From IMG/VR virus record IMGVR_UViG_3300027901_000001: 64,000 bases of DNA, one strand, 5' to 3'. Shown here piece by piece: positions 50,358 to 61,442 of this stretch (position 1 is its first letter; each line of letters opens with the position of its first letter). Position numbers and translations under genes: made by a program. The DNA comes from a virus. The notes under the pieces were generated by a model. It had not been told where the DNA came from and did not search any database. It saw only the letters and a list, made by a program, of their open reading frames with translations.

Positions 50358-51329
50358 TTATTTCTGCGCCAGCAGCTTCGCCCGGTGAGCGTCGAACTTC
50401 CTCTCCGGCACAAATCTCAGCTTGTACTTCTTGTCGAGACCGTACTTGTCAATTAGGTCGATCACCGTGAGAAATGATTTGGGAAAACGATAACCCTGAG
50501 CCGCCAGCTCCAGCTCCTTTGTCGGCAGGGTTCCTTCCCGATGCTTCTTAATGACCTCGGGCGTCACCCTCTCATCTTTCAGCACAAGCAGCCTCGTTTT
50601 GGGGGGCACCCTGAAGGTATCCCCCTTCATTATCCACTCCCCCTCGTCCTTGTAGATGTCCCCGATCCTCTTCAGGGTCCTATGGGCGATACGATAAAAA
50701 TCCTTGATCGGAATCTTCTGGAGAAGGTCAAGGTAAAATTCTCCGATATCCCTCTTCTTCGCTATCTCGATAGAAGCGTTCCGAATCCATTTGGCCAAAT
50801 CCCTGATGGAATTTATCCGAGGGTTTTGGCCCCGAAATAACTCCCCGTATTTCGACCGGCTCAAGTACCCATAGTCTATCGCGTGCCCGATCTTGGCCAA
50901 CGGCGAGCCCATCGGCTCCTTCTGGAGAAACATCCGAAAGTAATCCATGAAATTCATCATCACGCCGTCACGGCCAAGCCCGCTCTCGGGATCTTTCTGC
51001 CATATCCGGTAGAGGCAAATGAGGTTCTTGGACACCAGGTACTCCGGCTTTTCGTAAAGTACCCTGGTCAACTTGTTCAGCTTCGCCACGTCCTTGCCGG
51101 GCATCACCAGCATCGCGTTACGCGCCACGCCCAGAAATTGCCTCACAATTCGCCTGTCGCCGGAGATGCCCTTCACCCCTTTCAAGACTCCGGATGCCAA
51201 CTGCTTCACCTGGTCCTCGTTGATATCGTCGATGTCGGTCACCAGCCAGAAGACGCCAGGCACGTCGGCGGGACCGTAGCTGCGCTCGATGAGAAAGAGC
51301 GCCCAGTCAAGCTGCTCGGAAATTCTCAT
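50358..51329 (-). CDS. Hypothetical protein with leader-like N-terminus (MRISEQLDWAL)
   Basis: 323-aa ORF with SD GGAG. Confidence 0.65.
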   Translation of the reverse strand: MRISEQLDWALFLIERSYGPADVPGVFWLVTDIDDINEDQVKQLASGVLKGVKGISGDRRIVRQFLGVARNAMLVMPGKDVAKLNKLTRVLYEKPEYLVSKNLICLYRIWQKDPESGLGRDGVMMNFMDYFRMFLQKEPMGSPLAKIGHAIDYGYLSRSKYGELFRGQNPRINSIRDLAKWIRNASIEIAKKRDIGEFYLDLLQKIPIKDFYRIAHRTLKRIGDIYKDEGEWIMKGDTFRVPPKTRLLVLKDERVTPEVIKKHREGTLPTKELELAAQGYRFPKSFLTVIDLIDKYGLDKKYKLRFVPERKFDAHRAKLLAQK

Positions 51330-51402
51330 CCATACTCTCCAGCTTCAAACGACCCGGTAAGATATTCCGCGATGAGCATGGCCCCAGAGTATCACCCGCC
51401 CA

Positions 51403-51418
51403 CGTTTCACGTGAAACA
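51403..51418. promoter_or_regulatory. parS: parS centromere site (15/16)
   Basis: CGTTTCACGTGAAACA, intergenic, at the end of the tRNA array. Confidence 0.82.
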
Positions 51419-51420
51419 TT

Positions 51421-51497
51421 CGGCACGGGCGGCTGGGGTCGAACCAACACCAACTCGGGTCAAAGCCGAGCGCCTCTACCAATTGGGCTACGCCCGT
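51421..51497 (-). tRNA. trnQ: tRNA-Gln(UUG)
   Basis: Cloverleaf; loop CTTTGAC. Confidence 0.92.
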
Positions 51498-51498
51498 G

Positions 51499-51575
51499 TA
51501 GCACTCCCACAGGGACTCGAACCCCGATTCCCGGCTCCGGAGGCCGGTGCTCTAATCCACTTGAGCTATGGGAGC
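51499..51575 (-). tRNA. trnR: tRNA-Arg(CCG)
   Basis: Cloverleaf; loop CTCCGGA. Confidence 0.92.
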
Positions 51576-51576
51576 C

Positions 51577-51652
51577 TGGCACCCGCGAGAGGACTCGAAC
51601 CTCCAGTGACCGGTTCCGTAGACCGGCGCTCGTCCAATTGAGCTTCGCGGGC
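51577..51652 (-). tRNA. trnR: tRNA-Arg(ACG)
   Basis: Cloverleaf; loop CTACGGA; CCA encoded. Confidence 0.93.
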
Positions 51653-51653
51653 C

Positions 51654-51727
51654 TGGATCGGGTGGCTGGAATCGAACCAGCGTTGACGGCGTCAGAGACC
51701 GTTGCCCTACCACTGGGCCACACCCGA
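51654..51727 (-). tRNA. trnQ: tRNA-Gln(CUG)
   Basis: Cloverleaf; loop CTCTGAC; CCA. Confidence 0.93.
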
Positions 51728-51728
51728 A

Positions 51729-51805
51729 TGGCGTCCCATCCCGGATTTGAACCGGGGTCTCCGGATTGAGGGTCCGACGGCCTGGGCCAGCTAGCCGAAT
51801 GGGAC
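51729..51805 (-). tRNA. trnE: tRNA-Glu(CUC)
   Basis: Cloverleaf; loop CCCTCAA (C33); CCA. Confidence 0.88.
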
Positions 51806-51806
51806 T

Positions 51807-51881
51807 TGGTGCACCTGGTGGGAATCGAACCCTACATCCCCGGCGTGAAAGACCGGTCGCCTACCATTAGCAGACAGGTGC
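51807..51881 (-). tRNA. trnE: tRNA-Glu(UUC)
   Basis: Cloverleaf; loop CTTTCAC; CCA. Confidence 0.92.
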
Positions 51882-51897
51882 AAGGGAGCGTTTCGAG

Positions 51898-51957
51898 TTA
51901 GCGGCGCTGCCGCTCTCGTTCTCGCTCTACCTCGCGCTGTCGTTGCCGTCGGAACAT
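51898..51957 (-). CDS. Leader peptide for the Glu/Gln/Arg tRNA block (MFRRQRQREVERERERQRR)
   Basis: 16 of 19 codons are E/Q/R; all Arg codons are CGN. Confidence 0.85.
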   Translation of the reverse strand: MFRRQRQREVERERERQRR

Positions 51958-51966
51958 GATGCTTTT

Positions 51967-51995
51967 ACCTTGCGGCCGACCGCAGGAATTGTCAA
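51967..51995 (-). promoter_or_regulatory. Sigma70-like promoter ahead of the E/Q/R leader
   Basis: TTGACA-N17-CAAGGT. Confidence 0.5.
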
Positions 51996-51997
51996 CC

Positions 51998-52074
51998 CGG
52001 AGTCGGTAGTGGGAATCGAACCCACGGCCTCCTGCTTACCATGCAGGCGCTCTACCAGCTTGAGCCATACCGAC
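51998..52074 (-). tRNA. trnT: tRNA-Thr(GGU)
   Basis: Cloverleaf; loop ATGGTAA. Confidence 0.92.
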
Positions 52075-52077
52075 AAA

Positions 52078-52091
52078 GGCAGTCGACTGCC
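52078..52091. repeat. 14-bp palindrome, copy 4
   Basis: Exact; spacer between two Thr tRNAs. Confidence 0.85.
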
Positions 52092-52168
52092 CGGAGCTGG
52101 TGACAGGAATCGAACCTGCGTCCTTCCGCTTACAAGGCGGATGCTCTGCCAACGCGAGCTTCACCAGC
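52092..52168 (-). tRNA. trnT: tRNA-Thr(UGU)
   Basis: Cloverleaf; loop CTTGTAA. Confidence 0.92.
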
Positions 52169-52169
52169 G

Positions 52170-52244
52170 CGGAGCCCCCGGTGGGAGTCGAACCCACGCC
52201 TCCTGAGTACGAAACAGGTGTGCTGCCGTTAGCACCACGGGGAC
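52170..52244 (-). tRNA. trnT: tRNA-Thr(CGU)
   Basis: Cloverleaf; loop TTCGTAC. Confidence 0.88.
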
Positions 52245-52378
52245 AGGGAAGCGGGCGTTACCCGCCTGCTGGTCCCTGTCGTGGTGCAGTGGTGGAACCG
52301 ACAGGACTCGAACCTGCAACCTTCTGGCTGCCAGCCAGACGCTCTCCCGAGTTGAGCTACGGACCCAAACACTTTCAT
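52229..52378 (-). promoter_or_regulatory. Thr-sensing leader ORF reading through tRNA-Ala(GGC)
   Basis: ATG 52378 with SD; 50 codons; spacer codons ACC ACG ACA GGG ACC ... ACG; stops inside tRNA-Thr(CGU). Confidence 0.65.
52290..52366 (-). tRNA. trnA: tRNA-Ala(GGC)
   Basis: Cloverleaf; loop CTGGCAG; G3:U70; CCA. Confidence 0.93.
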
Positions 52379-52426
52379 CTCCGTTCCTCTCCGGACATAA
52401 GACGATTTTTTATGTCCGATTATCCT

Positions 52427-52503
52427 CAGTGGACCCGGTGGGATTTGAACCCACGACCCTCTGCTTGCAAGGCAGACGCTCTCCCTGGCTGAGCTACAAG
52501 CCC
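52427..52503 (-). tRNA. trnA: tRNA-Ala(UGC)
   Basis: Cloverleaf; loop CTTGCAA. Confidence 0.9.
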
Positions 52504-52562
52504 ATGTGCCGTTTTACCGGCGTTGTCCTCTTCTATGTCTCCGACCTCCGATTATCCCTCAA

Positions 52563-52598
52563 AAAAAATGCCCCGTTTTTCACCGCGACGGCGGGGCC
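52563..52598 (-). terminator. Rho-independent terminator-like element between tRNA-Val and tRNA-Ala(UGC)
   Basis: GCCCCG ... CGGGGC stem followed by A and an 8-T run on the minus strand. Confidence 0.55.
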
Positions 52599-52638
52599 AC
52601 CCGCCGAAACCAAACCCCGCTGAAAAGCGTGAGTCCGA

Positions 52639-52714
52639 TGGTACGGGGAAGTGGAGTTGAACCACTGGCCTCCTGCTTGTAAGACAGGCGCTCTCCCAGT
52701 TGAGCTATCCCCGC
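52639..52714 (-). tRNA. trnV: tRNA-Val(UAC)
   Basis: Cloverleaf; loop CTTACAA; CCA. Confidence 0.92.
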
Positions 52715-52715
52715 A

Positions 52716-52790
52716 TAGTGCGAGCGCCGGGAATCGAACCCGGATTTCCGCCGTGGCGGGGCGACATGCTGCCGGTTGCATCACACTCGC
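52716..52790 (-). tRNA. trnG: tRNA-Gly(GCC)
   Basis: Cloverleaf; loop CCGCCAC (C33). Confidence 0.88.
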
Positions 52791-52792
52791 AT

Positions 52793-52866
52793 CGGAGAGC
52801 CGGGTGGGAGTCGAACCCAAACCTCGACGGGGTTGCAACCCGCCTCCATCCCGGATGGACCGGCTC
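52793..52866 (-). tRNA. trnC: tRNA-Cys(GCA)
   Basis: Cloverleaf; loop TTGCAAC; U73. Confidence 0.88.
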
Positions 52867-52916
52867 ACAAGTCCGCCCGAGCTTCTACAGAGTGGGTCTG
52901 GTTTGCGTTCGTACAT
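52867..52916 (-). promoter_or_regulatory. Cys leader (MYERKPDPLCRSSGGL...)
   Basis: SD GAGGAG plus ATG; one TGT codon; reads into tRNA-Cys. Confidence 0.5.
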
Positions 52917-52927
52917 GAGAGTCTCCT

Positions 52928-53000
52928 CGGCAGGCCAGGTGGGAATCGAACCCACTACAGTCGGATTTGGAATCCGACCGGCTACCTCAGCCTCTGACCT
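52928..53000 (-). tRNA. trnW: tRNA-Trp(CCA)
   Basis: Cloverleaf; loop TTCCAAA. Confidence 0.88.
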
Positions 53001-53023
53001 ATCTCTTACTTGGCGGGCCTGCC

Positions 53024-53146
53024 TTATCGCCAAGCGAGCACGGCCAGAGGCTCCATACCGATCGCGGCAGTCGCCTCCGCACACACGACGGCCGCGCAAC
53101 CAGCGGTTGCTGTCGCGGCGACCAGGGTCGTGTAGCGCATACGCAT
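53024..53146 (-). CDS. Leader peptide for the Trp/Cys/Gly/Val/Ala/Thr tRNA block
   Basis: MRMRYTTLVAATATAGCAAVVCAEATAAIGMEPLAVLAWR; 26 of 40 residues are T/A/V/G/C/W; SD AAGGTGAGG. Confidence 0.8.
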   Translation of the reverse strand: MRMRYTTLVAATATAGCAAVVCAEATAAIGMEPLAVLAWR

Positions 53147-53152
53147 ATCCTC

Positions 53153-53180
53153 ACCTTAAGGGATCTACTGCCGTTGTCAA
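53153..53180 (-). promoter_or_regulatory. Sigma70-like promoter ahead of the W/C/G/V/A/T leader
   Basis: TTGACA-N16-TAAGGT. Confidence 0.6.
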
Positions 53181-53182
53181 GC

Positions 53183-53272
53183 CGGTGCGGGTAGCAGGAC
53201 TCGAACCTGCACGGCCACAAGGACCAGCGGATTTTAAGTCCGCCATGACTACCAAGATTCCATCATACCCGC
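53183..53272 (-). tRNA. trnL: tRNA-Leu(UAA)
   Basis: Long variable arm; loop CTTAAAA. Confidence 0.92.
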
Positions 53273-53273
53273 G

Positions 53274-53366
53274 TAGCGGAAGGGACAGGGATCGAACCTG
53301 CAAGGGACGCAATGCCTCACCCGGATTCCAACCGGGCTCCATCGCCAACCGTTGGATTGCCCTTCC
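53274..53366 (-). tRNA. trnS: tRNA-Ser(GGA)
   Basis: Long variable arm; loop TTGGAAT. Confidence 0.9.
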
Positions 53367-53367
53367 T

Positions 53368-53455
53368 TGGTGCGAGTGAGAGGATTTGCACCTCCACGCC
53401 CATAAAGGGCACCTGGGTTTGAGCCAGGCTCGTCTGCTGATTCCGACACACTCGC
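53368..53455 (-). tRNA. trnL: tRNA-Leu(CAA)
   Basis: Long variable arm; loop CTCAAAC; CCA. Confidence 0.92.
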
Positions 53456-53456
53456 G

Positions 53457-53543
53457 TGGCGGAGGACGGAGGGCTCGATCCCCAGACCTTTCGGTCCGCA
53501 CTGCTTTCGAGACAGGCTTGATCCCACGACCAATTCATCCTCC
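53457..53543 (-). tRNA. trnS: tRNA-Ser(CGA)
   Basis: Long variable arm; loop CTCGAAA; CCA. Confidence 0.88.
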
Positions 53544-53544
53544 T

Positions 53545-53632
53545 TGGCGGAAAGCAGAGGTCCTGAGCCCCACACCTCTCGGTGCACACCGCTTTCAAGG
53601 CGGGTCCGGCGCGCCTGTCCGGTTTGCCTTCC
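53545..53632 (-). tRNA. trnS: tRNA-Ser(UGA)
   Basis: Long variable arm; loop CTTGAAA; CCA; atypical T-loop. Confidence 0.85.
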
Positions 53633-53633
53633 G

Positions 53634-53724
53634 TGGTACAGGTGACTGGACTCGAACCAGCACGGGGCTCTCGCCCCACCGGATCCTGAATCCGGCGTGT
53701 CTACCAAGATTCCACCACACCTGC
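53634..53724 (-). tRNA. trnL: tRNA-Leu(CAG)
   Basis: Long variable arm; loop TTCAGGA; CCA. Confidence 0.92.
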
Positions 53725-53725
53725 A

Positions 53726-53812
53726 TAGTACGGGTGAAGGGACTTGCACCCCCACGGCCCGAAGGCCACTGGATCCTTAGTCCAGCGCGTCTGCTGATTC
53801 CGCCACACCCGC
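53726..53812 (-). tRNA. trnL: tRNA-Leu(AAG), rare A34 anticodon
   Basis: Long variable arm; stem CTGGA/TCCAG, loop CTAAGGA. Confidence 0.88.
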
Positions 53813-53854
53813 GTGCGCCAGCCCTCTATGAGCTGCTGCGGGCGCTGGGCTGGA

Positions 53855-53932
53855 TTACTGGACAGACGGGTGCGCCCGCAGCTCGATTAAAAGCAACGAT
53901 GACAGGGATAGGCTGTGGACGCAGTAAAACAT
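53855..53932 (-). CDS. Leader peptide for the Leu/Ser tRNA block (MFYCVHSLSLSSLLLIELRAHPSVQ)
   Basis: Nine consecutive, all different Leu/Ser codons: AGC CTA TCC CTG TCA TCG TTG CTT TTA; downstream of a promoter-like element. Confidence 0.85.
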   Translation of the reverse strand: MFYCVHSLSLSSLLLIELRAHPSVQ

Positions 53933-53974
53933 GGTTCTTCCGTACTTCGATTCCCGGCGGCACCCCCTCAGAGG

Positions 53975-54002
53975 ATCTTAAGCGTAGAGGGGAAAAAGTC
54001 AA
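53975..54002 (-). promoter_or_regulatory. Sigma70-like promoter ahead of the Leu/Ser leader
   Basis: TTGACT-N16-TAAGAT. Confidence 0.6.
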
Positions 54003-54003
54003 C

Positions 54004-54159
54004 CTACTCTTGGAGCTGCTCTTTTTCAGATATCCGCGCCTTGCGCTCTTGCCAGGTCTGAGACTTTAAGCCTCCTTTGGCTCCGTTCTTCTTCCACGGT
54101 TTGCACATCAGACAACCGGCCCGCCTGCTTTTCGGACGCCTTCTCTTGTGATGGCCCAC
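54004..54159 (-). CDS. Small basic CxxC protein (MGHHKRRRPKSRRAGCLMCKPWKK...)
   Basis: 51-aa ORF, GTG start with SD GGAGGT; below the ORF-track cutoff. Confidence 0.55.
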   Translation of the reverse strand: MGHHKRRRPKSRRAGCLMCKPWKKNGAKGGLKSQTWQERKARISEKEQLQE

Positions 54160-54204
54160 GGTCACCTCCAGCGGCCTCCCGCCGCGTGTAAGGGATTTCA
54201 GCCA

Positions 54205-54516
54205 TCACAGCCTCCGTTTCTTCCGTTTCAGGGTGTACCGGGCCTCCACGGGCCGGTCCTTCACCCACTCAATGTACCGCCAAACCTTGGGGCTCGCCAA
54301 GAGCTTCTTCAGAGTGTTGTACTGGGTGCGCAGCTCCTGGTTCGTGAACATGAGGTGAATCTGGTCGCCACACTGATGGCAGACCTTGATCCCCTCCTTA
54401 GTACGCCGCCGCCGCTTGCCCGGCTCTAGGTGATGGAACACCAGATGGTCCGTCTCCCTGGAGCAGAGCGCGCAGCACAGCTTGTGCTTATTTTCCGGAC
54501 AGGCAGAGGGACGCAT
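54205..54516 (-). CDS. Small HNH-like endonuclease
   Basis: CALC...HHL...CHQC..QIH. Confidence 0.6.
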   Translation of the reverse strand: MRPSACPENKHKLCCALCSRETDHLVFHHLEPGKRRRRTKEGIKVCHQCGDQIHLMFTNQELRTQYNTLKKLLASPKVWRYIEWVKDRPVEARYTLKRKKRRL

Positions 54517-55450
54517 ACAGCACTTCGTCCCCCTCACCAACGAACTGGCCCGACAGCAACCTGCTGGCCACCGTCCGCAGGGAGAAGCCGCCCATCTTTT
54601 CGTCCGGCCGGGCAGCCGCCTCAAGCTGGAGTGCCTGGGTTTCGCCAACCACGGTGCTGGTCGTCTCCTGGTCCTTCTCGGTTGCCTCCTTCAGAGCCGC
54701 CTGGAGCCCCTCCAGGGACCGTTCTCCCACGGTAAGGGCCGACCTAGTAGCCGGAGGCAGCGGGTTGCCCTTGGCCACCTGGAGCGACAGGGAGCCGTAG
54801 CACACCCGAATCAGAGGCACCCACAGACGCTCCCAGAAGGCCACGGAGGGAGCGCGCTCGACGCCCACCACCTTGCCGCCTACCAGGATGATGCTGCCCA
54901 CCTGCCGGGGCACCAGCTCGAACTCGGCCACGAACTCATCGAGCTGCTTCTTGAAGTGCCGCAAGAAGTCCGCGATGTTGCCGCTGCCGGACAGGCCCAC
55001 GGACCGCTTGAAAGCGCGGATGAAGGTCCACAGCCGATCGTACTTATCCTCCAGCCGAGTCGCCAGCGCCTGAGCACGCAGCGCCGCCGGAAGGATGATC
55101 ATGCTGCCCTGCTGATCACGGATAAGCCCGCTCTGGGTCTCCTGGATGCAGCACGCCCGGTCCATGTCCCGCTCGCTCTTGGGAGCCATGAGCGCGCCCC
55201 CGCACACCGCGTGGTCCTGAGCCGCGTCCTTCACGCACCAGCCCGCGCCGGGCGACACAATAGAAGGCCGGTCGGCCGTGTTCCGAAGGTGCACGGAACC
55301 GTACTCGTGGGTCGAGGCGTGGAAATCCGGCGGAGCGAACCGATCGTCGTCTTCGTCGCTCAGCAGCGGAATCACCTCCATCTGTCCGACGCTCTGGCGA
55401 GCACCGGTCCTGGTTCCTTTAAGGATCTGTTCTACGGTCAGTGTAGGCAT
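54488..55450 (-). CDS. ARPP/DUF6569-like domain protein
   Basis: 'QSVGQMEVIPL', 'AAQDHAV', 'ACCIQETQSG'; coupled to the vWA gene; family call from memory of the motif pattern. Confidence 0.5.
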   Translation of the reverse strand: MPTLTVEQILKGTRTGARQSVGQMEVIPLLSDEDDDRFAPPDFHASTHEYGSVHLRNTADRPSIVSPGAGWCVKDAAQDHAVCGGALMAPKSERDMDRACCIQETQSGLIRDQQGSMIILPAALRAQALATRLEDKYDRLWTFIRAFKRSVGLSGSGNIADFLRHFKKQLDEFVAEFELVPRQVGSIILVGGKVVGVERAPSVAFWERLWVPLIRVCYGSLSLQVAKGNPLPPATRSALTVGERSLEGLQAALKEATEKDQETTSTVVGETQALQLEAAARPDEKMGGFSLRTVASRLLSGQFVGEGDEVLYASLCLSGK

Positions 55451-57036
55451 TACACACCTCCTCTCCCGAGCACCGGGAGCGCCCTGCCGATCAGGACGTT
55501 GATACCGCGCACCGGATCCGCCTCCAGCATCCCCCGGATGAACGTCAGCCCGATGGACGCCGGATCCTTCACCGGCATGGTGGAAGCCAGCTTGGGAGCC
55601 AGCTCCCGGACACTTCCAACCTCAGCCGCGAAAACCGGGTTGATGTGGTAGACCGGCGTTTCGATGCCGATCTCGCGTGCCTGGCCGAGCACCTCTGCAA
55701 ACCGTCCGGCCGGTCGGTTCTCATACCCATCGCTGAGCACAAAGATAACATCCGGCCCATCGGCCAGCAGCTCCAGGAGTCCCGAGGCCAGCTCGGTATC
55801 TCCGGACGGCCGGGGAGACTCGGCCCCCAGATTACCTCCACGGGTAACCTCAAAGGCGCGCTTCGTGGCTGTCCGCCTCAGCATATCGCGCATGGCCAGC
55901 ACGGCCGCCATCGGCCGCAGCGGCTGGGTCTTGTCCCCGGCCATCGACTTCGAGGCATCCACCAGGATGCCAACGTTCTCGTAGCTCACCGGGAACGCCT
56001 TGGCCGCCTTCCGAGCCTTGGCCAGAAGAGCCTCCTCGATCTCTCCAGTCATGCCCATCTCGAAGGCGTACAGGTAAAGCCGGACCGCATCGTAGTCCTT
56101 CGGATCCATCTCGACCTTGACCCCAGCCTTCTTCGCCTGACGCTGCACCGTCATCTTCTGCTTCTTGCTGAGAGTGCCTTCCTTCGCAGCGTGCTTCAGC
56201 ACCTCATCCTTGGAGACCTCCTGGTGGTAGGTGCTCCGCAGGCCCTCCAGAACCTCCGGCGGCAGTCGACTGCCTTCCGCCAGGTCCTTCTTGGCCGCCT
56301 CCCGAGCCTTGAGCAGGGGGGTCTTCCAGGTCCGCGTGCCACCGAGCACGAAGCACACGTACTCGTACACGTCGGACGGCTTGCCCTGGTGGTACTTGTC
56401 GATGCTGTCGCGGAGAATCTTCTTCTCCTTGTCCGTCCAGGTCCGGGCGCTCCGGCTCAGGATCGTCCGGATCACCGTGGTGCGCTTCTGGCCCCAGGCG
56501 TGGGTCAGGGCCTCGCTCATCTTGCTGCGGTACTTCACGGCCCACCAGTCCAACTTCCTGGAGCTGAGGATGGTCCGCAGCATCAGCTTCCGGGTCCGGG
56601 CGTTGTTGGCCTTCGGCGTCTCCTGGGTGCCCACGCGGAATCCCTGGAAGAGCTTGAACACCATCTGCGGAGGCATCTCGCGCATGTAGTGGTAGAGCAC
56701 CTCGCGCTCCATCTTGGCGTCGAGCAGGCCATCGGTCTGGCTGTTACGCGGGGTACCGAGCAGATTCTTGGTGCCGATCTGCACGGCGCGCTCCATCACG
56801 CCCGGCAGCACCAACAGCAAGGCGTACAGGTCACGGTCGAGCTTCATCATGGCCTGGTGCGCAGCCAGCTCCGCCTTCTGCTGCTCCTGGCGCGTGTTGT
56901 AGTGGGTAGCCCGGCCAAACGAGGTCGAGGCCGTGTCCAGGAAATGGCACACGATCTCCCCCGCCTTCTTCGCAGTCACACGCTGCGGAGGCTTCCACCT
57001 GATTTCATCGCTGTCCCTGGTAACGATGTCCGGCAT
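55450..57036 (-). CDS. TROVE/Ro60-like helical domain plus vWA (MIDAS) protein
   Basis: 528 aa; MIDAS 'VDASKSM' and 'VLSDGYEN'; helical N-terminal two-thirds with 'PPEVLEGL'; size and architecture as in Ro60. Confidence 0.65.
   Translation of the reverse strand: MPDIVTRDSDEIRWKPPQRVTAKKAGEIVCHFLDTASTSFGRATHYNTRQEQQKAELAAHQAMMKLDRDLYALLLVLPGVMERAVQIGTKNLLGTPRNSQTDGLLDAKMEREVLYHYMREMPPQMVFKLFQGFRVGTQETPKANNARTRKLMLRTILSSRKLDWWAVKYRSKMSEALTHAWGQKRTTVIRTILSRSARTWTDKEKKILRDSIDKYHQGKPSDVYEYVCFVLGGTRTWKTPLLKAREAAKKDLAEGSRLPPEVLEGLRSTYHQEVSKDEVLKHAAKEGTLSKKQKMTVQRQAKKAGVKVEMDPKDYDAVRLYLYAFEMGMTGEIEEALLAKARKAAKAFPVSYENVGILVDASKSMAGDKTQPLRPMAAVLAMRDMLRRTATKRAFEVTRGGNLGAESPRPSGDTELASGLLELLADGPDVIFVLSDGYENRPAGRFAEVLGQAREIGIETPVYHINPVFAAEVGSVRELAPKLASTMPVKDPASIGLTFIRGMLEADPVRGINVLIGRALPVLGRGGV
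56261..56274. repeat. 14-bp palindrome, copy 5
   Basis: Exact; inside the TROVE-like gene. Confidence 0.8.
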
Positions 57037-57057
57037 GGTTGTACCTCCAGAAAAATA

Positions 57058-57189
57058 CCGGGGGTAAGTTGCTCGTCATTTGTCTCGCGCCTTTACCAGT
57101 TAGGCCACGCCCCCGCTTGGTGGGGGCGGCAGGACTCGAACCTGCAATCTCGGGATTCCATATCCGAAAATGACGCGACAGTTCCCCGG
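57058..57189 (-). ncRNA. Y-RNA-like RNA with a circularly permuted tRNA-like domain
   Basis: Outer stem CCGGGG/CCCCGG plus GCGUCAUUU/AAAUGACG encloses, in order, a T-arm (GCAGG-TTCGAGT-CCTGC), a loop-closed acceptor stem (CGCCCCC-ACCAAGC-GGGGGCG) and a D-arm (GCC-TAACTGGTAAA-GGC); directly upstream of the TROVE-like gene. Confidence 0.75.
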
Positions 57190-57199
57190 ATAAATTAAG

Positions 57200-57271
57200 C
57201 CCCGGTCACGGTGACTGTCGCGGAGTAAAGGGGTTAACCAAAATCCTAAAACGACAGCGCAGTTCCCGAGG
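57200..57271 (-). ncRNA. Short GAACU-motif hairpin RNA
   Basis: CCUCGG-GAACU-gcgCUGUCG ... CGACAG ... CCGGGG. Confidence 0.5.
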
Positions 57272-57285
57272 TCTAATCTTTCGCC

Positions 57286-57442
57286 TGTTCGTAGCGACCG
57301 GCCTGAGACAGGGGGGTTGTCAGGTTTTTTGAAAGAAAACAGGAATCGGACCTGTACCTTCTGTTGGTAAAACAGACGTGCTACCGTTGCACTATCTCTT
57401 CCGAAACTAGCAACCTAGTTCTCAGGTCCGTCGCTACGAACA
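57286..57442 (-). ncRNA. Long-stem RNA enclosing a degenerate tRNA-like cloverleaf
   Basis: TGTTCGTAGCGAC/GTCGCTACGAACA and CCTGAGA/TCTCAGG stems; the inner 57331..57402 has D-, anticodon-like (TCTGT/ACAGA) and T-like arms with a poor acceptor stem. Confidence 0.6.
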
Positions 57443-57480
57443 AGCTCCTTTCATTCATACCCTCCTTCCGAGTATCTCCA

Positions 57481-57508
57481 TTATTAGCCTATGTTTTCCG
57501 TTTGTCAA
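57481..57508 (-). promoter_or_regulatory. Sigma70-like promoter ahead of the Y-like RNA/TROVE-like operon
   Basis: TTGACA-N16-TAATAA(T). Confidence 0.55.
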
Positions 57509-57527
57509 ATCCTGTCTTGATTTTTTC

Positions 57528-57613
57528 TGGCGGAAGGCAGAGGTCCCGACCCTCAGACCCGGAGGCCCCAACGGCTTAGCAGGCCGCGCCTGTCCCCGAC
57601 AGGTTTACCTTCC
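57528..57613 (-). tRNA. trnS: tRNA-Ser(GCU)
   Basis: Long variable arm; loop CTGCTAA; CCA. Confidence 0.87.
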
Positions 57614-57662
57614 CAAGGTTCCTGCTCGGGCGCGTACTGCTCTCTGTTGCTCTGCCTCTCAT
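57614..57662 (-). promoter_or_regulatory. Ser(GCU) leader (MRGRATESSTRPSRNL...)
   Basis: AGC AGT ... AGC and no TCN codons. Confidence 0.7.
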
Positions 57663-57671
57663 CGCTTTCCT

Positions 57672-57745
57672 CGGTGGGTCTGAAGGGAATCGAACCCCTG
57701 TAGTCCGGTTAAGAGCCGGATGCTCGGCCACTGAGCGACAGACCC
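57672..57745 (-). tRNA. trnK: tRNA-Lys(CUU)
   Basis: Cloverleaf; loop CTCTTAA. Confidence 0.92.
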
Positions 57746-57809
57746 TCGCGTGCGCGCACCTCCGCGTGCGCGTGCGCTTGAGCCTGGTCTGTCGATTTAC
57801 CGAAATCAT
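57746..57809 (-). promoter_or_regulatory. Lys(CUU) leader (MISVNRQTRLKR...)
   Basis: SD AGGAG; single Lys codon is AAG; CGACAGACC pairs with the tRNA 5' strand. Confidence 0.65.
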
Positions 57810-57820
57810 CGTGAAACTCC

Positions 57821-57895
57821 TGGTGGGCGCGGTGGGAATCGAACCCACGGATTCCGGGTTAAAAGCCCGGTACCCTGCCATCGGGTGCCACGCCC
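57821..57895 (-). tRNA. trnK: tRNA-Lys(UUU)
   Basis: Cloverleaf; loop CTTTTAA; CCA. Confidence 0.9.
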
Positions 57896-57933
57896 TCGAT
57901 GGGACGCGGCGATCGTTTCAGTCTCCTATTCAT
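57896..57933 (-). promoter_or_regulatory. Lys(UUU) leader (MNRRLKRSPRPI...)
   Basis: Single Lys codon is AAA; GCCGCGTCC pairs with the tRNA 5' GGGCGTGGC. Confidence 0.62.
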
Positions 57934-58008
57934 AGCTCCAGGGGCAGGCGTCGAACCCGCATAGTCTCGGTTAACAGCCGAGCGCCTTACCAGTTAGGCT
58001 ACCCTGGA
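57933..58008 (-). tRNA. trnN: tRNA-Asn(GUU)
   Basis: Cloverleaf; loop CTGTTAA. Confidence 0.92.
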
Positions 58009-58053
58009 AGAACACCGCTGGGGCCGACCGTTGGCCGACCCGGTGGTATTCAT
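58009..58053 (-). promoter_or_regulatory. Asn leader (MNTTGSANGRPQRCS...)
   Basis: AAT and AAC codons. Confidence 0.55.
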
Positions 58054-58058
58054 TCCAG

Positions 58059-58134
58059 TGGCAGGAGTGGAAGGACTCGAACCCTCATCACCGGGGTAGA
58101 AGCCCGGTGCTCTCATCCGTTGAGCTACACTCCC
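58059..58134 (-). tRNA. trnR: tRNA-Arg(UCU)
   Basis: Cloverleaf; loop CTTCTAC; CCA. Confidence 0.92.
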
Positions 58135-58136
58135 TC

Positions 58137-58211
58137 GGGCGGGAGCGGCGGGAGTCGAACCCGCACAGACCAGCTTAGGAGGCCGGTACCCATCCATTAG
58201 GCGTCGCTCCC
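58137..58211 (-). tRNA. trnR: tRNA-Arg(CCU)
   Basis: Cloverleaf; loop CTCCTAA. Confidence 0.88.
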
Positions 58212-58260
58212 AGATGCTGTCCTGGAATCTTCGCCTGTATCTGTGCTCGATCCGTTCCAT
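58212..58260 (-). promoter_or_regulatory. Arg(CCU/UCU) leader (MERIEHRYRRRFQDSI...)
   Basis: CGG AGA AGG CGA AGA; contains both AGG and AGA. Confidence 0.72.
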
Positions 58261-58271
58261 CTTCTTCTTCC

Positions 58272-58348
58272 TGGTAGGCCCGGTCGGATTTGAACCGACG
58301 ACCACGCCCTTATCGGGGGCGTGCTCTACCTATCTGAGCTACGAGCCC
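58272..58348 (-). tRNA. trnI: tRNA-Ile(GAU)
   Basis: Cloverleaf; loop CCGATAA (C33); CCA. Confidence 0.9.
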
Positions 58349-58398
58349 ATCACCCTTGCGCGCCGGTCTCAACCGGCCCGGTAATGAGCACAGCCTGT

Positions 58399-58911
58399 TT
58401 ACGCAACACTCGCATACGTTCTCCTGTTCACAATGTAAGATACGGTGGTCTTTGGAACCCCATACTTCTCCATCAGCTCTTTATACGACATGCCCCGATC
58501 CCGATCTTTTCTCAGGTTTCGCACCTCATCTTCGGAAACCTTGCTTCTAACCCTCCCTGCCTTCCGAGCATCCAAGGTCCTCTTTCTTTTGTCCTTATCT
58601 AACGTGTTCTGAGAATGCGTCCCGATTGCGATGTTCCCTTTGCTATTGTTCAGTGGGTTTCCGTCCAAGTGTCGCGCCTCCACTCCTTCAGCAAACGCAT
58701 CTTCTCCGAACCACTGATAGGCCGCCAACAGATGGACGGCGACATTATATTCTACCCCTTTGTCCTTTATCTTAAATGACAAGTACCCTTTTCTGTCGTC
58801 GTAAAGACTCCTTTTCTTGCCTGACGCTGCTGTTACCTCTCCTGCCTCTGAAACCCTGTATCCTTTACGAAAAGCAATCAACACTGCGGTAATCTTTTTT
58901 GACCGCCTCAT
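58399..58911 (-). CDS. HNH homing endonuclease with C-terminal HTH, inserted in the tRNA array
   Basis: 'VHLLAAY', 'ARHLDGNPLNNSKGNI...THSQN'; AT-rich. Confidence 0.85.
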   Translation of the reverse strand: MRRSKKITAVLIAFRKGYRVSEAGEVTAASGKKRSLYDDRKGYLSFKIKDKGVEYNVAVHLLAAYQWFGEDAFAEGVEARHLDGNPLNNSKGNIAIGTHSQNTLDKDKRKRTLDARKAGRVRSKVSEDEVRNLRKDRDRGMSYKELMEKYGVPKTTVSYIVNRRTYASVA

Positions 58912-58912
58912 T

Positions 58913-58991
58913 TTGCGCTCCGGGGCAGGATCGAACTGCCGACACCTCGGGCTTCAACCGAGTGCTCTACCAACGCCTGAGCTACCGGAGC
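58913..58991 (-). tRNA. trnF: tRNA-Phe(GAA)
   Basis: Cloverleaf; loop TTGAAGC. Confidence 0.9.
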
Positions 58992-59048
58992 AGAATCGCT
59001 ACGGCAGCCCGTAAAGCCCTCATCGTATGTCCTCTTCCTGTCCATCAT
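58992..59048 (-). promoter_or_regulatory. Phe leader (MMDRKRTYDEGFTGCRSDS...)
   Basis: TTT followed by GGCTGCCGTAGC, which pairs 11/12 with the tRNA 5' end; start uncertain. Confidence 0.58.
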
Positions 59049-59053
59049 CTCCT

Positions 59054-59127
59054 CGGTGCGGGCAAAGGGAATCGAACCCATTTCTCCAGGGTGGAAACCT
59101 GGCATCTCACCGTTGGACCGTACCCGC
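59054..59127 (-). tRNA. trnG: tRNA-Gly(UCC)
   Basis: Cloverleaf; loop TTTCCAC. Confidence 0.9.
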
Positions 59128-59165
59128 ATGGCCAGCAGCAGGCTCTCCCTGCACGGTCCCTCCTC
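59128..59165 (-). promoter_or_regulatory. Gly(UCC) leader
   Basis: In-frame GGA GGA GGG ACC GTG CAG GGA; GGACCGTGC pairs with tRNA GTACGGTCC. Confidence 0.62.
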
Positions 59166-59243
59166 CGGTCCACCCGGTCGGACTCGAACCGATCATCGCT
59201 CGCTTATAGGGCGAGTGCTCTACGCAGATTGAGCTACGGGTGG
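59166..59243 (-). tRNA. trnI: tRNA-Ile(UAU), rare anticodon
   Basis: Cloverleaf; stem CTCGC/GCGAG, loop CCTATAA; A73. Confidence 0.85.
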
Positions 59244-59298
59244 TCACCGTAACGGGCGCGACCCGTGCGCCTATCTGCCTATCCGCTCGCCTTGCCAT
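59244..59298 (-). promoter_or_regulatory. Ile(UAU) leader (MARRADRQIGARV...)
   Basis: The only Ile codon is ATA; SD-like GGAGG upstream. Confidence 0.62.
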
Positions 59299-59539
59299 GC
59301 CTCAGTCCCTCCATGTACCACTGGTATTCGTGACCTCTGACCGTTCCTCCGCACTTCTTACAACGATACTGCGCCCTGAAATGTAATCCGTCGTTTTCCT
59401 TTTCAAATTCGTGCGGCCCTTCACACTCCCTGAGCTTCTTGTGGTTGGCCTTCACCTCTTCCCAGATTTGATTGATTTCCTTTTTCTTCAGCCCCGATAC
59501 GTTCGCTAGCGCGTCTAGTGCCTTGTCAACCATGCTCAC
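59279..59539 (-). CDS. Small Zn-finger hypothetical protein
   Basis: C...H.F...Y.CKKCG. Confidence 0.6.
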   Translation of the reverse strand: MSMVDKALDALANVSGLKKKEINQIWEEVKANHKKLRECEGPHEFEKENDGLHFRAQYRCKKCGGTVRGHEYQWYMEGLRHGKASG

Positions 59540-59540
59540 C

Positions 59541-59629
59541 TGGTGCGCCGGGAGGGAATCGAACCCCCATAGCCCGTCAGGACACCTGGGTTACAGCCAG
59601 GCCCCCGTACCAATTCGAGGAACCGACGC
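59541..59629 (-). tRNA. trnY: tRNA-Tyr(GUA)
   Basis: Long variable arm; loop CTGTAAC; CCA. Confidence 0.9.
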
Positions 59630-59691
59630 ATACCGGTTTCCGCCGCCTCTCGCGGCCCGGTATAGCGCCTGTCTGTCCTGCACCCTGTCAT
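59630..59691 (-). promoter_or_regulatory. Tyr leader (MTGCRTDRRYTGPREAAETG...)
   Basis: SD AGGAG; one TAT codon; alternative hairpins. Confidence 0.5.
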
Positions 59692-59721
59692 CGTTTCCAT
59701 CTCCTGTTCCGCAACAAGCAA

Positions 59722-59879
59722 GTAAACCGAGGCAAGGGCTCTCGTTGGTTTTGGCTTTTGAGTTACCCCGGCGATAAAAAAGGCTTGCGCCTAGCGCCGG
59801 GGGCTGGACTCGAACCAGCAACGTTCAGTCTATCAAACTGATACTCTTCCTATAACAACGCGATAGTTCCTCGGTTTAC
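59722..59879 (-). ncRNA. Second Y-RNA-like RNA with permuted T-arm/acceptor domain
   Basis: 11-bp outer stem GTAAACCGAGG/CCTCGGTTTAC, GAACU, CGTTG/CAACG; T-arm GCTGG-TTCGAGT-CCAGC followed by the CCCCGGCG/CGCCGGGG stem. Confidence 0.68.
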
Positions 59880-59907
59880 CTCCTTGCTGCGAGCTGAAAC
59901 AAACAGG

Positions 59908-60034
59908 TGATCTGAGACAGGTTGAACGTCAGTTTTGGTAAAGGGGGTCTGCACGACCTACACGGACTTATGCGTGTCCGTCATTGGTTTTCAGCCAATG
60001 GCATTCCTAGACTGGCGGTACAGTTCTCAGATCA
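59908..60034 (-). ncRNA. GAACU-motif long-stem RNA, paralogue of 57286..57442
   Basis: TGATCTGAGA/TCTCAGATCA stem; shares CTGAGAACT ... CTGAC ... CCTGTCTCAG with 57286..57442. Confidence 0.55.
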
Positions 60035-60058
60035 ACTCTTTCTTCCAACACCTCCTTT

Positions 60059-60136
60059 TGGGCTGGCCGACGGGACTCGAACCCGCAAAAAACACGGCCC
60101 ACAACCGTGTGCCTCGTCCGGCTGGCTCCGACCAGC
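60059..60136 (-). tRNA. trnH: tRNA-His(GUG)
   Basis: 8-bp acceptor stem with G-1:C73; loop TTGTGGG; CCA. Confidence 0.9.
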
Positions 60137-60174
60137 ATAATATGGCCGGAGCCCGTATGTCTTTCGCCCTTCAT
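60137..60174 (-). promoter_or_regulatory. His leader (MKGERHTGSGHI...)
   Basis: Two CAT codons flank GGCTCCGGCCA, which pairs 11 bp with tRNA TGGTCGGAGCC. Confidence 0.75.
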
Positions 60175-60184
60175 CTTCCTTCTC

Positions 60185-60258
60185 CAGCGCCCCGTACGGG
60201 ACTCGAACCCGTCTCATTGGATCGACAGTCCAACTGCATCCCCGATGCACAACGAGGC
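60185..60258 (-). tRNA. trnD: tRNA-Asp(GUC)
   Basis: Cloverleaf; loop CTGTCGA; G73. Confidence 0.87.
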
Positions 60259-60296
60259 ATCAGATCGTCAGCCGGTTCTGTATCTATCCAGGTCAT
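60259..60296 (-). promoter_or_regulatory. Asp leader (MTWIDTEPADDL...)
   Basis: SD AGGAG; GAT, GAC, GAT in 12 codons. Confidence 0.68.
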
Positions 60297-60307
60297 CGTC
60301 TTCTCCT

Positions 60308-60386
60308 TGGTAGCGGGAGCGGGATTTGAACCCGCGATCTTCGGGTTATGAGCCCAACGGGGACGACCAGACTCCCCTATCCCGCA
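60308..60386 (-). tRNA. trnfM: Initiator tRNA-fMet(CAU)
   Basis: GGG/CCC anticodon stem, 1:72 mismatch, loop CTCATAA; CCA. Confidence 0.9.
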
Positions 60387-60394
60387 GCAATCCT

Positions 60395-60471
60395 TGGTCC
60401 GGGCGGTGGGATTTGAACCCACGACTACGTGGTCCCAAGCCACGTGGGCTACCAGCCTGCCCTACACCCGG
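60395..60471 (-). tRNA. trnP: tRNA-Pro(UGG)
   Basis: C1:G72, A73; loop CTTGGGA; CCA. Confidence 0.92.
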
Positions 60472-60537
60472 TCGTGTTAACGGATCCGTGCCCCGAACGC
60501 ACGGTCGACCGGGTTGTGGTGGGTACCAGTAAAACAT
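60472..60537 (-). promoter_or_regulatory. Pro leader (MFYWYPPQPGRP...)
   Basis: SD AGGAGG; CCA CCA, 5 Pro in 22 codons; ACCCGGTCG pairs with CGACCGGGT at the tRNA 5' end. Confidence 0.75.
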
Positions 60538-60757
60538 CTTGCCTTCCTCCTTCTAGCCCACCAGGAACGCAAGATTTCGTGGCGGGCTCTTTATGACCCG
60601 CCTGGATATGGACGGGTCAGAAGCGAAAAATATCACTCCCGTTATGCCTATACATCGGCTTGGGTATGTCTTTTCTGCTTGGCATCTCCGTCTCTTAGGT
60701 GCCCCTCGGGACTCGAACTAATCCGAGCCCGAAGGCCCCGCTCTTTTGAAGGTGATC

Positions 60758-61093
60758 CTATCCGGAAAGATTGTCAAGCGCCCCCCTCAACAAAAGAGGC
60801 AGATTGCTGACGATTCTTCTTGCCGACGATCCGAGTGCCAGTGCAGTGGCTTCATCACCGACATCCGGCTCACGAAAAAGCGACGCCGGGCAGCCGTTCG
60901 CCTGGTCCCGGAGCGCCAGCAGCGCCTTCTCGTCCGGCACCTGGAGGAGCACCAGGTTGTTCGATCCTTCGTACCAGGCGCGGTCCTCTTCGGGGTGCTC
61001 GGCCGAAAAAAGCCGCAGGGCATGGCACGCCTGGGCCGCCTGGAGACCCGGCTTCAGGTCAGCCCGGACCACGATATAGAGCTTTGCATCAAT
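60758..61093 (-). CDS. Peptidyl-tRNA hydrolase, PTH2-like (start codon ambiguous)
   Basis: 'KLYIVVRADLKPGLQAAQACHA', 'LVLLQV' and 'FREPD.G...TALA'; the in-frame region upstream of GTG 61072 has no ATG. Confidence 0.75.
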   Translation of the reverse strand: MDAKLYIVVRADLKPGLQAAQACHALRLFSAEHPEEDRAWYEGSNNLVLLQVPDEKALLALRDQANGCPASLFREPDVGDEATALALGSSARRIVSNLPLLLRGALDNLSG

Positions 61094-61159
61094 GGGACTG
61101 TTTCATTTCAACACCTCTTTGGTTTGATGGCTAAATTAAGCCTTTCTCATGGCTTAAAT

Positions 61160-61245
61160 TGGTCAGCCGGGAGGACTCGAACCCCATACTCCTGACCCGT
61201 ACCGCGAATCGGGGTCAGTTGCTCTACCAGTTGAGCTACCGGCCG
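61160..61245 (-). ncRNA. tRNA-like RNA (Pro-like body) with a 17-nt region in place of the 7-nt anticodon loop
   Basis: Normal acceptor, D and T arms plus CCA; CTGAC-[CCCGATTCGCGGTACGG]-GTCAG. Confidence 0.75.
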
Positions 61246-61355
61246 ATAAGTCATGTGGGAGGAGCCATCCACTCGGGATCTACCGCGAATCAACCCCAAG
61301 TTGCCCAGGACCCTTCCGGGCTGGCAGTCCCTACTCAGTATCCTGGACACCCACA

Positions 61356-61442
61356 TGGCACGCGGGGATGGACTCGAACCACCGACCTCCGAGCAAGCTC
61401 GGTGCTCTTCCTGGAGCAAAGCTCTCTCTGAGCTACCCGCGT
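61356..61442 (-). ncRNA. tRNA-like RNA with a CUUG tetraloop instead of an anticodon loop and an enlarged D-loop
   Basis: ACGCGGG/CCCGCGT acceptor, G73, CCA; CCGAG-CTTG-CTCGG; 22-nt D-loop containing a GAGC-TTT-GCTC hairpin. Confidence 0.75.

Follow-up and report, generated by a model that had tools for sequence, protein, structure and literature searches.

We analyzed a 64,000-nucleotide (nt) stretch of phage DNA, the IMG/VR record IMGVR_UViG_3300027901_000001, which we call the window, and found that tRNA genes in its two clusters are preceded by short open reading frames (ORFs), here called leaders, whose codons match the tRNAs immediately downstream. On balance we consider it probable that codon-specific pausing of a ribosome on a leader licenses the folding and maturation of the matching tRNA, which would be a form of attenuation that does without a terminator. 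The proposal draws on the anatomy of the leaders, on the statistics of their codons and spacing, on conservation and co-evolution in related phages, and on the thermodynamics of folding models.

The genome around the window is a single contig of 191.6 kb that encodes a major head protein, a head maturation protease and a portal, and these head genes together with the clustered tRNA genes (37-39 tRNAs) identify the region as a tailed-phage tRNA array. The full stretch is present in one sequencing run only, from a marine-sediment metagenome that may be the source sample, and no RNA run is listed for it. All tRNA genes of the window lie on the minus strand, in cluster B (61652..57330) and cluster A (53812..51422). 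ARAGORN counted 37 of them, and Infernal added two, Gly-UCC at 59127..59057 and an odd tRNA at 61245..61163. A neighboring gene for a vWA-domain protein (57036..55450) has hundreds of homologues, and we compared the window with four metagenomic phages (L002-L005, L006, L007 and L008/L165) that are among the five closest homologues of this protein, at 63-82% identity. All four relatives examined have syntenic tRNA arrays. Below, L1, L2 and L3 denote the leaders of whole tRNA blocks in the window, while L001-L169 are labels of other phage records or contigs. The block leaders, their tRNA blocks and cluster B are as follows, with cognate codons of the block leaders counted by wobble rules.

53975..54002, minus strand: promoter-like site of L1 (TTGACT, 16 nt, second hexamer), 9/12 matches in a consensus scan
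53932..53855, minus strand: block leader L1, a 25-codon ORF before the Leu/Ser block, 8/24 codons cognate
53835..53882, minus strand: switch segments of L1 from RNAalifold, segment 1 at 53882..53872 (in the ORF) and segment 2 at 53845..53835 (past the stop)
53184..53812, minus strand: tRNA block 1 (ARAGORN, Infernal), Leu-AAG, Leu-CAG, two decayed Ser-like sequences (53633..53456), Leu-CAA, Ser-GGA, Leu-UAA
53024..53180, minus strand: TTGACA at 53180..53175, then block leader L2 (ORF 53146..53024, 40 codons), 24/39 codons cognate
51999..53000, minus strand: tRNA block 2 (ARAGORN), Trp, Cys, Gly-GCC, Val-UAC, Ala-UGC, Ala-GGC, Thr-CGU, Thr-UGU, Thr-GGU
51898..51995, minus strand: TTGACA at 51995..51990, then block leader L3 (ORF 51957..51898, 19 codons), 16/18 codons cognate
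51422..51881, minus strand: tRNA block 3 (ARAGORN), Glu-UUC, Glu-CUC, Gln-CUG, Arg-ACG, Arg-CCG, Gln-UUG
57330..61652, minus strand: tRNA cluster B (ARAGORN, Infernal), 18-19 tRNAs and embedded genes

Such cognate fractions are rare among short ORFs. When all six frames of the whole genome were searched, 12, 3 and 1 of 1121 short ATG ORFs reached the fractions of L1, L2 and L3, respectively, the leaders themselves included. L1 holds a run of eight Leu/Ser codons (53911..53888) that are all different and include the rare TTA, CTA and TCA; under the codon usage of the phage, eight distinct codons in such a run have a probability of 0.014. The count for L1 rises to 10/24 if the two decayed Ser-like tRNAs are included. 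L2 stands before the order Trp-Cys-Gly-Val-Ala-Ala-Thr x3, and its TGG codon (53032..53030) lies 32 nt ahead of tRNA-Trp. The cognate codons of L3 are Glu, Gln and CGN-type Arg codons, with no AGA or AGG, and the block behind it reads Glu x2, Gln, Arg x2, Gln. A first-pass annotation of the sequence had placed a TTGAC-type promoter before each block leader; the TTGACA or TTGACT hexamer is indeed found shortly before all three starts, and the consensus scan passes the L1 site only. The second hexamers of L2 and L3 are weak, and these ORFs start about 6-10 nt beyond the likely second hexamer, which would make their transcripts almost leaderless.

Further observations concern the blocks themselves. 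The two tRNA-Ser-like sequences at 53456-53633 (minus strand) have the anticodons UGA and CGA by eye and degenerate T-loops, and were missed by both ARAGORN and Infernal. They are homologous to an intact tRNA-Ser(CGA) and tRNA-Ser(UGA) of L007, and L1 still has TCA and TCG. Between Val-UAC and Ala-UGC of block 2, at about 52561-52597 (minus strand), we noticed by eye a hairpin followed by T8 that may split the block; it is absent from the relatives, where the homologous spacer is just 17-26 nt. The Thr-UGU/Thr-GGU spacer (52075-52092, minus strand) carries a 14-bp palindrome, of which L002 has a variant differing by one base at the same place. Block 2 also contains inner leaders for Cys (start 52916) and for Ala/Thr (start 52378). 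The Cys leader and the leaders of cluster B are the following, most with a Shine-Dalgarno (SD) sequence.

60472..60537, minus strand: Pro leader, SD and ATG at 60537, codons CCA, CCA and CCG, anti-tRNA segment 60513..60492
60259..60296, minus strand: Asp leader, SD and ATG at 60296, Asp codons at 60284, 60269 and 60266; three Asp codons in 4/4 genomes
60136..60174, minus strand: His leader, SD and ATG at 60174, CAT at 60159 and 60144, anti-tRNA segment 60168..60142
59244..59298, minus strand: Ile-AUA leader, ATG at 59298, ATA at 59274, anti-tRNA segment 59282..59260
58992..59045, minus strand: Phe leader, SD and ATG at 59045, TTT at 59015, anti-tRNA segment 59024..58997
58213..58260, minus strand: Arg-AGR leader before Arg-CCU and Arg-UCU, SD and ATG at 58260, codons AGA, AGG and AGA, anti-tRNA segment 58252..58222
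57896..58053, minus strand: Asn leader (ATG at 58053) and Lys-AAA leader (ATG at 57933, AAA at 57918), flanking tRNA-Asn
57614..57809, minus strand: Lys-AAG leader (SD and ATG at 57809, AAG at 57779) and Ser-AGY leader (SD and ATG at 57662, AGC and AGT at 57641..57636, anti-tRNA segment 57634..57617), flanking tRNA-Lys(CUU)
52867..52916, minus strand: Cys leader, SD and ATG at 52916, TGT at 52889, anti-tRNA segment 52893..52870

Single leaders were also picked by a fixed rule, as the first ATG or GTG with an SD-like tetramer ahead of it, read up to the tRNA. The rule yields 16 leaders in which 26 of 235 codons are cognate, compared with 7.25 +/- 2.8 in shuffled pairings (p<5e-6), and 15 of the 16 contain at least one cognate codon. 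The first-pass annotation had claimed the codon match for blocks and single tRNAs alike, and had set the permutation of leader-tRNA pairings beforehand as its test; the match stands. In the other two frames of the same spacers, the number of cognate codons is 3 and 8, versus 26 in the leader frame. A test that ignores frame altogether found a cognate triplet 20-36 nt upstream of the tRNA in 16 of 22 spacers, where 7.1 were expected. Start signals are likewise enriched, with a ribosome-binding site and start codon present in 8 of 12 short spacers versus 0.71 +/- 0.81 in shuffles (maximum 5 in 5000). We also considered whether the cognate triplet is a by-product of antisense to the anticodon, and rejected this, as 3 of 97 triplets pair with the anticodon in folds.

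The sensor codon sits at a fixed distance from the tRNA. All 11 window leaders have a cognate codon 22-34 nt before the first tRNA nucleotide, where random placement would give 5.25, and the rule also holds in L002, L006 and L008, with the peak of the histogram at 21-29 nt. Most single leaders (12 of 13 in the window) have no stop before the tRNA, and their frames run on into it. The spacers without a start of their own (Thr, Tyr, Gly-UCC, Ile-GAU) have a cognate codon in the open frame of the previous leader in 12 of 12 cases. This relay frame runs from the start of the previous leader across the upstream tRNA, and it does so in five genomes despite differing tRNA lengths and start positions. 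The ORF of the Ala leader, for example, continues through tRNA-Ala into three consecutive Thr codons, one per Thr tRNA. The fixed distance and the read-through relay, like the anti-tRNA co-evolution described below, go beyond the first-pass annotation.

Leader ORFs that cross a tRNA can also end on the next start. Those crossing tRNA-Asp, tRNA-Tyr and tRNA-Phe have a stop that overlaps the start of, respectively, the His leader, an 86-amino-acid ORF and an HNH gene (60171-60174, 59536-59539 and 58908-58911, minus strand), and relatives join the same neighbors in frame or by another overlap. By a hand estimate such stop-start junctions number about 7 of about 13, versus about 4 expected, which is marginal over chance.

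At or just after the sensor codon, the leader contains a segment antisense to nucleotides 1-25 of the tRNA. Predicted duplexes of leaders with their own tRNA are better than those with other tRNAs of the same genome in four genomes (p=0.007, 0.001, 1e-4 and 0.0035), and within a family, leader:tRNA pairs from one genome beat pairs made across genomes (p=1e-4). The Phe leader is antisense to nucleotides 1-15 of tRNA-Phe, with 15-16 contiguous pairs in L002 and L008. Compensatory changes between leader and tRNA were found with RNAalifold for His, Phe and Ser-AGY, including three compensatory pairs for His, and the Cys anti-tRNA segment changes together with tRNA-Cys across genomes. L1 shows a four-segment layout in which segments 1 and 2 form a helix of 11 conserved bp (RNAalifold), and segment 2 can pair alternatively with the 5' acceptor strand of tRNA-Leu(AAG), namely with nucleotides 1-8 in the minimum free energy structure of leader plus tRNA. 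The duplex of L1 with its own tRNA ranks 3, 1 and 1 in three genomes.

We ran the same scripts on four unrelated arrays, those of a Streptomyces phage, of DSS3_MAL1, of a T5-like Providencia phage and of Caulobacter phage CcrBL9. They gave no signal in the codon test (p=0.54, 0.74, 0.29 and 0.05, respectively) and none in the own-duplex test (p=0.89, 0.88, 0.71 and 0.81). The CcrBL9 array (L169, 75428-89494) shows a borderline enrichment of cognate triplets 20-36 nt before its tRNAs (7/12, p=0.05) and no anti-tRNA signal.

To follow the competition between leader and cloverleaf, we folded 45 nt of leader together with the tRNA and modeled a paused ribosome, its A site on the cognate codon, as a 29-nt footprint forced to be single-stranded. 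The probability of the acceptor stem, which was about 0.9-1.0 for the tRNA alone, fell below 0.05 in 16 of 22 window tRNAs when the tRNA's own leader was attached, and did so in 50-82% of cases in the relatives. Shuffled leaders caused this loss in 23-32% of cases, leaders borrowed from other tRNAs of that genome in 20-39%, and the native leaders of the four unrelated phages in 0-15%, with median probabilities of 0.82-0.95. Placing the footprint on the cognate codon restored the stem to 0.6-1.0 for Asp, His, Ile-AUA, Phe, Arg, Ser-AGY, Cys, Lys-AAG and Thr. Given as tRNA alone / with leader / with leader and footprint, the predicted switch was 0.99 / 0.00 / 0.58 for Pro, 0.93 / 0.00 / 0.96 for His, 1.00 / 0.02 / 1.00 for Phe, 0.92 / 0.00 / 0.89 for Arg-AGR, 1.00 / 0.01 / 0.99 for Lys-AAG and 1.00 / 0.00 / 0.90 for Ser-AGY. 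The full L1, L2 and L3 abolished the stem of the first tRNA of their blocks in the model (0.00, 0.00 and 0.01). With TGG of L2 in the A site the acceptor stem of tRNA-Trp went from 0.00 to 0.99, and with codons 4-9 of L3 in the A site the stem of the first tRNA reached 0.85. Three elements of ribosome-mediated attenuation are present: a short ORF with start codon and ribosome-binding site, cognate regulatory codons in it and, in silico, a specific, co-evolving pairing of leader and tRNA that excludes the acceptor and D stems.

The leaders recur in the relatives, as the first-pass annotation had proposed to check. L1, L2 and L3 are found there with altered amino-acid sequence and preserved codon classes. 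The Leu/Ser run of L1 is conserved in L002, L007 and L008, and block 1 of L007 has seven tRNAs that match seven of the eight run codons; in L002 and L008 a different promoter-like site lies about 10 nt ahead of the L1 ATG. TGG is the last or next-to-last sense codon of L2 in every relative. Homologues of L3 in L007, L002 and L165 differ in their residues and have the same Glu/Gln/Arg make-up. As for the single leaders, about 13 had been proposed, and ten of these (Pro, Asp, His, Ile-AUA, Phe, Arg-AGR, Lys-AAA, Lys-AAG, Ser-AGY and Cys) are conserved in the relatives as ORFs with their cognate codon, the sensor codons being kept while neighboring codons change. The ATA of the Ile-AUA leader is present in 4/4 genomes, including those whose tRNA anticodon is CAU, and the TGT of the Cys leader sits 22-23 nt before tRNA-Cys in 4/4 genomes. 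The remainder of that set is weaker as separate ORFs: the Asn ORF is retained in three of five genomes, in the relatives Tyr and Gly-UCC lack a separate start, and Thr lacks one in every genome and is read in frame from the Ala leader. The spacers of Gly-UCC, Tyr, Asn and Ile-GAU are conserved as hairpins rather than ORFs, that of Asn being mainly a conserved hairpin with covariation. An uncurated codon-match pipeline gave p=3e-4 in L002, 2.5e-3 in L008, 0.04 in L007 and 0.06 in L006. Judged by sequence comparison, this recurrence shows that the leaders have been maintained over considerable divergence.

Among INPHARED phages there was no relative of the window, the matches being to tRNAs only, and a search of IMG/VR with the 323-amino-acid downstream gene gave no match. 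L001, an IMG/VR relative by the vWA-domain protein, has no tRNAs, and L009, a more distant relative (about 51% identity), has few tRNAs and no arrays at the corresponding locus. Two leader motifs searched against IMG/VR gave chance matches only, none of them adjoining tRNAs, and a motif scan of metagenomes added one contig, L165, which is a near-copy of L008.

We propose that the tRNA arrays are transcribed as long precursors that would also be translated. Each regulated tRNA would be preceded by a ribosome-binding site and start codon, or by a frame arriving from the previous leader; by one to three cognate codons 22-34 nt before its 5' end; and by a segment antisense to the 5' acceptor strand and the D arm, at or just after the sensor codons. 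Without a paused ribosome, this segment would pair with the 5' half of the nascent tRNA, so that no cloverleaf and no substrate for RNase P would form. When the cognate charged tRNA is scarce, the ribosome would wait with the sensor codon in its A site. A ribosome footprint reaches about 12-13 nt downstream, and the paused footprint would hide the antisense segment and end about 10 nt short of the tRNA, which could then fold and leave RNase P room to cut. When the cognate tRNA is plentiful, the ribosome would continue translating through the tRNA body as far as the next sensor. The outcome would be a separate negative feedback for each tRNA species, and in L1-L3, each of which lists the codons of a whole block, this logic would act on the first tRNA of that block. 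From the features described above we infer that the leaders are translated, that ribosomes pause on them, that release depends on RNase P and that the response has this sign. Such a ribosome-gated cloverleaf would account for the identity and distance of the sensor codons, for the start signals and the missing stops, and for the relay and the co-evolution of the antisense segments. We also count in its favor a PTH2-like hydrolase gene inside the array, whose product may help ribosomes on cut precursors. The first-pass annotation had left open whether leaders license transcription or maturation; the antisense, co-evolving segments and the release predicted by the models point to maturation, and no terminator that would speak for transcription was seen between any leader and its tRNA.

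A broader reading is that the whole array is a translated store of folding-blocked pre-tRNAs, a translation-coupled tRNA homeostat with one setting per isoacceptor. We advance it tentatively and with rather more doubt than belief. Ribosomes would thread through tRNA bodies from sensor to sensor, in frame or by stop-start overlap, and no tRNA species would be freed until a ribosome pauses for want of it, the release then being post-transcriptional and complete within seconds. Such a store could buffer the phage against codon-specific loss of tRNAs, for example by host anticodon nucleases.

Several points weigh against ribosome-gated folding. The mechanism leaves unexplained how one leader could control tRNAs 2-9 of a block, and in the model only two of the eight run codons of L1 restore the stem. 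No switch was predicted from the 45-nt leader for Asn, Ala-GGC and Glu-UUC, and L3 switches only if the full leader is folded. The models themselves are of equilibrium folding, without tertiary structure, modifications or kinetics, and in them about 30% of trials with shuffled GC-rich leaders disturb the stem as well. The 22-34 nt distance window was picked after the data were seen. About 1.3-1.5 of the three frames are open through the tRNAs, and in a control phage likewise, so read-through alone is not evidence and only the match between frame and cognate codon is. A single cognate codon, all that most leaders have, is a weaker pause signal than those of classical attenuators. Finally, the relatives form one small clade, and p-values across their genomes are not independent.

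Other explanations were weighed against the same observations. In classical transcription attenuation, the position of the ribosome would decide whether RNA polymerase terminates, intrinsically or with Rho, before the tRNAs, and leader:tRNA pairing would be secondary. L1-L3 each lie behind their own promoter-like site and end in conserved hairpins (the 11-bp helix of L1 and the ends of L2 and L3), and the 3' part of L1 looked C-rich by eye, as Rho sites are. We nonetheless regard this as unlikely. No intrinsic terminator, that is, a hairpin with U-tract, was seen between any leader and its tRNA by reading of the sequence and by scan; a terminator pair would not fit into the single-tRNA spacers of 39-75 nt; from the L3 stop to its tRNA there are 19 nt (12-13 nt in relatives); and it is with the tRNA itself that the leader pairs specifically and co-evolves. 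In 50500..63000, Rfam at E<=1 matched the tRNA clan, apart from weak chance matches, and revealed neither a T-box, which is marked by a specifier loop, the conserved T-box sequence and an antiterminator bulge, nor any other cis-regulatory family.

A little less likely still is that the spacers are processing or stability elements, either RNase targets or protective helices, with translation needed for the coupled expression of the embedded genes and the codon match having no sensing role. The stop-start overlaps from Asp to His, from Tyr to the 86-amino-acid ORF and from Phe to the HNH gene would fit this, as would the four spacers conserved as hairpins, although the junction count is marginal, and the explanation accounts neither for the in-frame match to the very next tRNA, nor for the fixed codon distance, nor for the retention of cognate codons amid changing neighbors. 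We think it improbable that the block leaders are working micropeptides, with L3 an arginine-rich RNA-binding peptide, L1 and L2 small hydrophobic or lipoprotein-like products, and the codon match a coincidence. The L3 product resembles arginine-rich RNA-binding motifs, and the L2 peptides of the window and L007 are fairly well conserved. Yet the joint chance of three independent block matches is roughly 1e-7, homologues of L2 and L3 change residues and keep codon classes, the L1 run is of eight different codons including rare ones, and the single leaders are not covered at all. To chance combined with selective reading of short ORFs we give almost no credence: such ORFs are abundant in GC-rich spacers and most single leaders have one cognate codon, but the rule-based, automatic and frame-free tests reject it, and the four unrelated arrays are null with the same scripts.

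Cluster B has three embedded genes.

61072..60758, minus strand: PTH2-like peptidyl-tRNA hydrolase gene
59539..59279, minus strand: 86-amino-acid ORF
58911..58399, minus strand: HNH endonuclease (HNH_3 homing-endonuclease-like)

Genes of the HNH_3 homing-endonuclease-like type are found at 58399-58911 and 61754-62332 (minus strand) and in L002 at 8848-9366, and their insertion sites differ between the arrays of the relatives. At the head of the cluster are two odd tRNA-like genes, 61163-61245 and 61356-61442 (minus strand), one with a long extension of the anticodon arm and the other with a two-base anticodon according to ARAGORN. Of the promoter-like sites in the region, the best (TTGACA, 17 nt, 11/12 matches) precedes a lone tRNA-Val-UAC (57330-57508, minus strand), and the tRNA at this place is Ala-UGC or Ile-GAU in relatives. 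A sub-threshold Rfam match to YrlA, a Y RNA-like family (31 bits versus a gathering score of 69), lies at 57055-57189 (minus strand), adjoining on the upstream side the gene of the vWA-domain protein (55450-57036) and that of an ARPP-1 protein (54488-55450). From their sequences, the YrlA-like RNA and the vWA/ARPP-1 genes could form a Ro-like RNA-protein module; the vWA-domain protein (55450-57036) had no TROVE match.

If the proposal is true, the ribosome is the sensor for maturation of the same tRNA it awaits, and the tRNA cloverleaf replaces the terminator of classical attenuation. There would be one feedback loop per isoacceptor, in about 40-75 nt, and tRNA precursors could be translated. 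The system would offer a handle on why large phages carry near-complete tRNA sets, whether for codon supply or for escape from tRNA-targeting defenses, and would provide compact, portable parts for codon-by-codon sensing of decoding capacity. The module is small enough for cell-free testing. To our knowledge, the control that phages exert over their own tRNA genes is essentially unknown, and tRNA genes are generally thought to be without product-specific feedback. In full-text literature searches we came across no description of leader ORFs as regulators of tRNA genes, in agreement with the first-pass annotation, which knew of none; a leader-like region may lie near E. coli tRNA-Phe genes.

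By analogy, the nearest known system is translational attenuation of the ermC/cat type in mechanism and the amino-acid operon attenuators in logic. T-boxes also sense one tRNA species codon-specifically in a 5' leader; however, a T-box makes direct contact with uncharged tRNA, no ribosome being involved, and the genes it controls are synthetase or amino-acid genes. Translation of the bar minigenes of phage lambda depletes host tRNA as a side effect and is linked to peptidyl-tRNA hydrolase. They too are phage mini-ORFs whose translation touches one tRNA pool, and the hydrolase link fits the PTH2-like gene found here, but bar minigenes are not wired to tRNA genes. In the ermC, cat and cmlA leaders, a drug-induced pause frees a ribosome-binding site. 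There as here, a ribosome paused on a short ORF would hide one arm of a helix and free a downstream element, with no terminator involved; the difference is that the element freed here would be the 5' half of a tRNA, and that the pause would depend on the supply of the released tRNA. With the trpL, hisL, pheL, thrL, leuL, ilv and pheST attenuators, the leaders described here share a short ORF with ribosome-binding site, pathway-cognate codons and exclusive pairings that would be chosen by the ribosome, and multivalent leaders that name several amino acids, as L1-L3 do, are known among them. Unlike those attenuators, the present leaders have no terminator hairpin with U-tract, and their third and fourth segments are the strands of the tRNA. 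Most of them have one to three cognate codons instead of runs, the product would itself be the decoder of the sensor codon, and the sensors are chained in series in one transcript.

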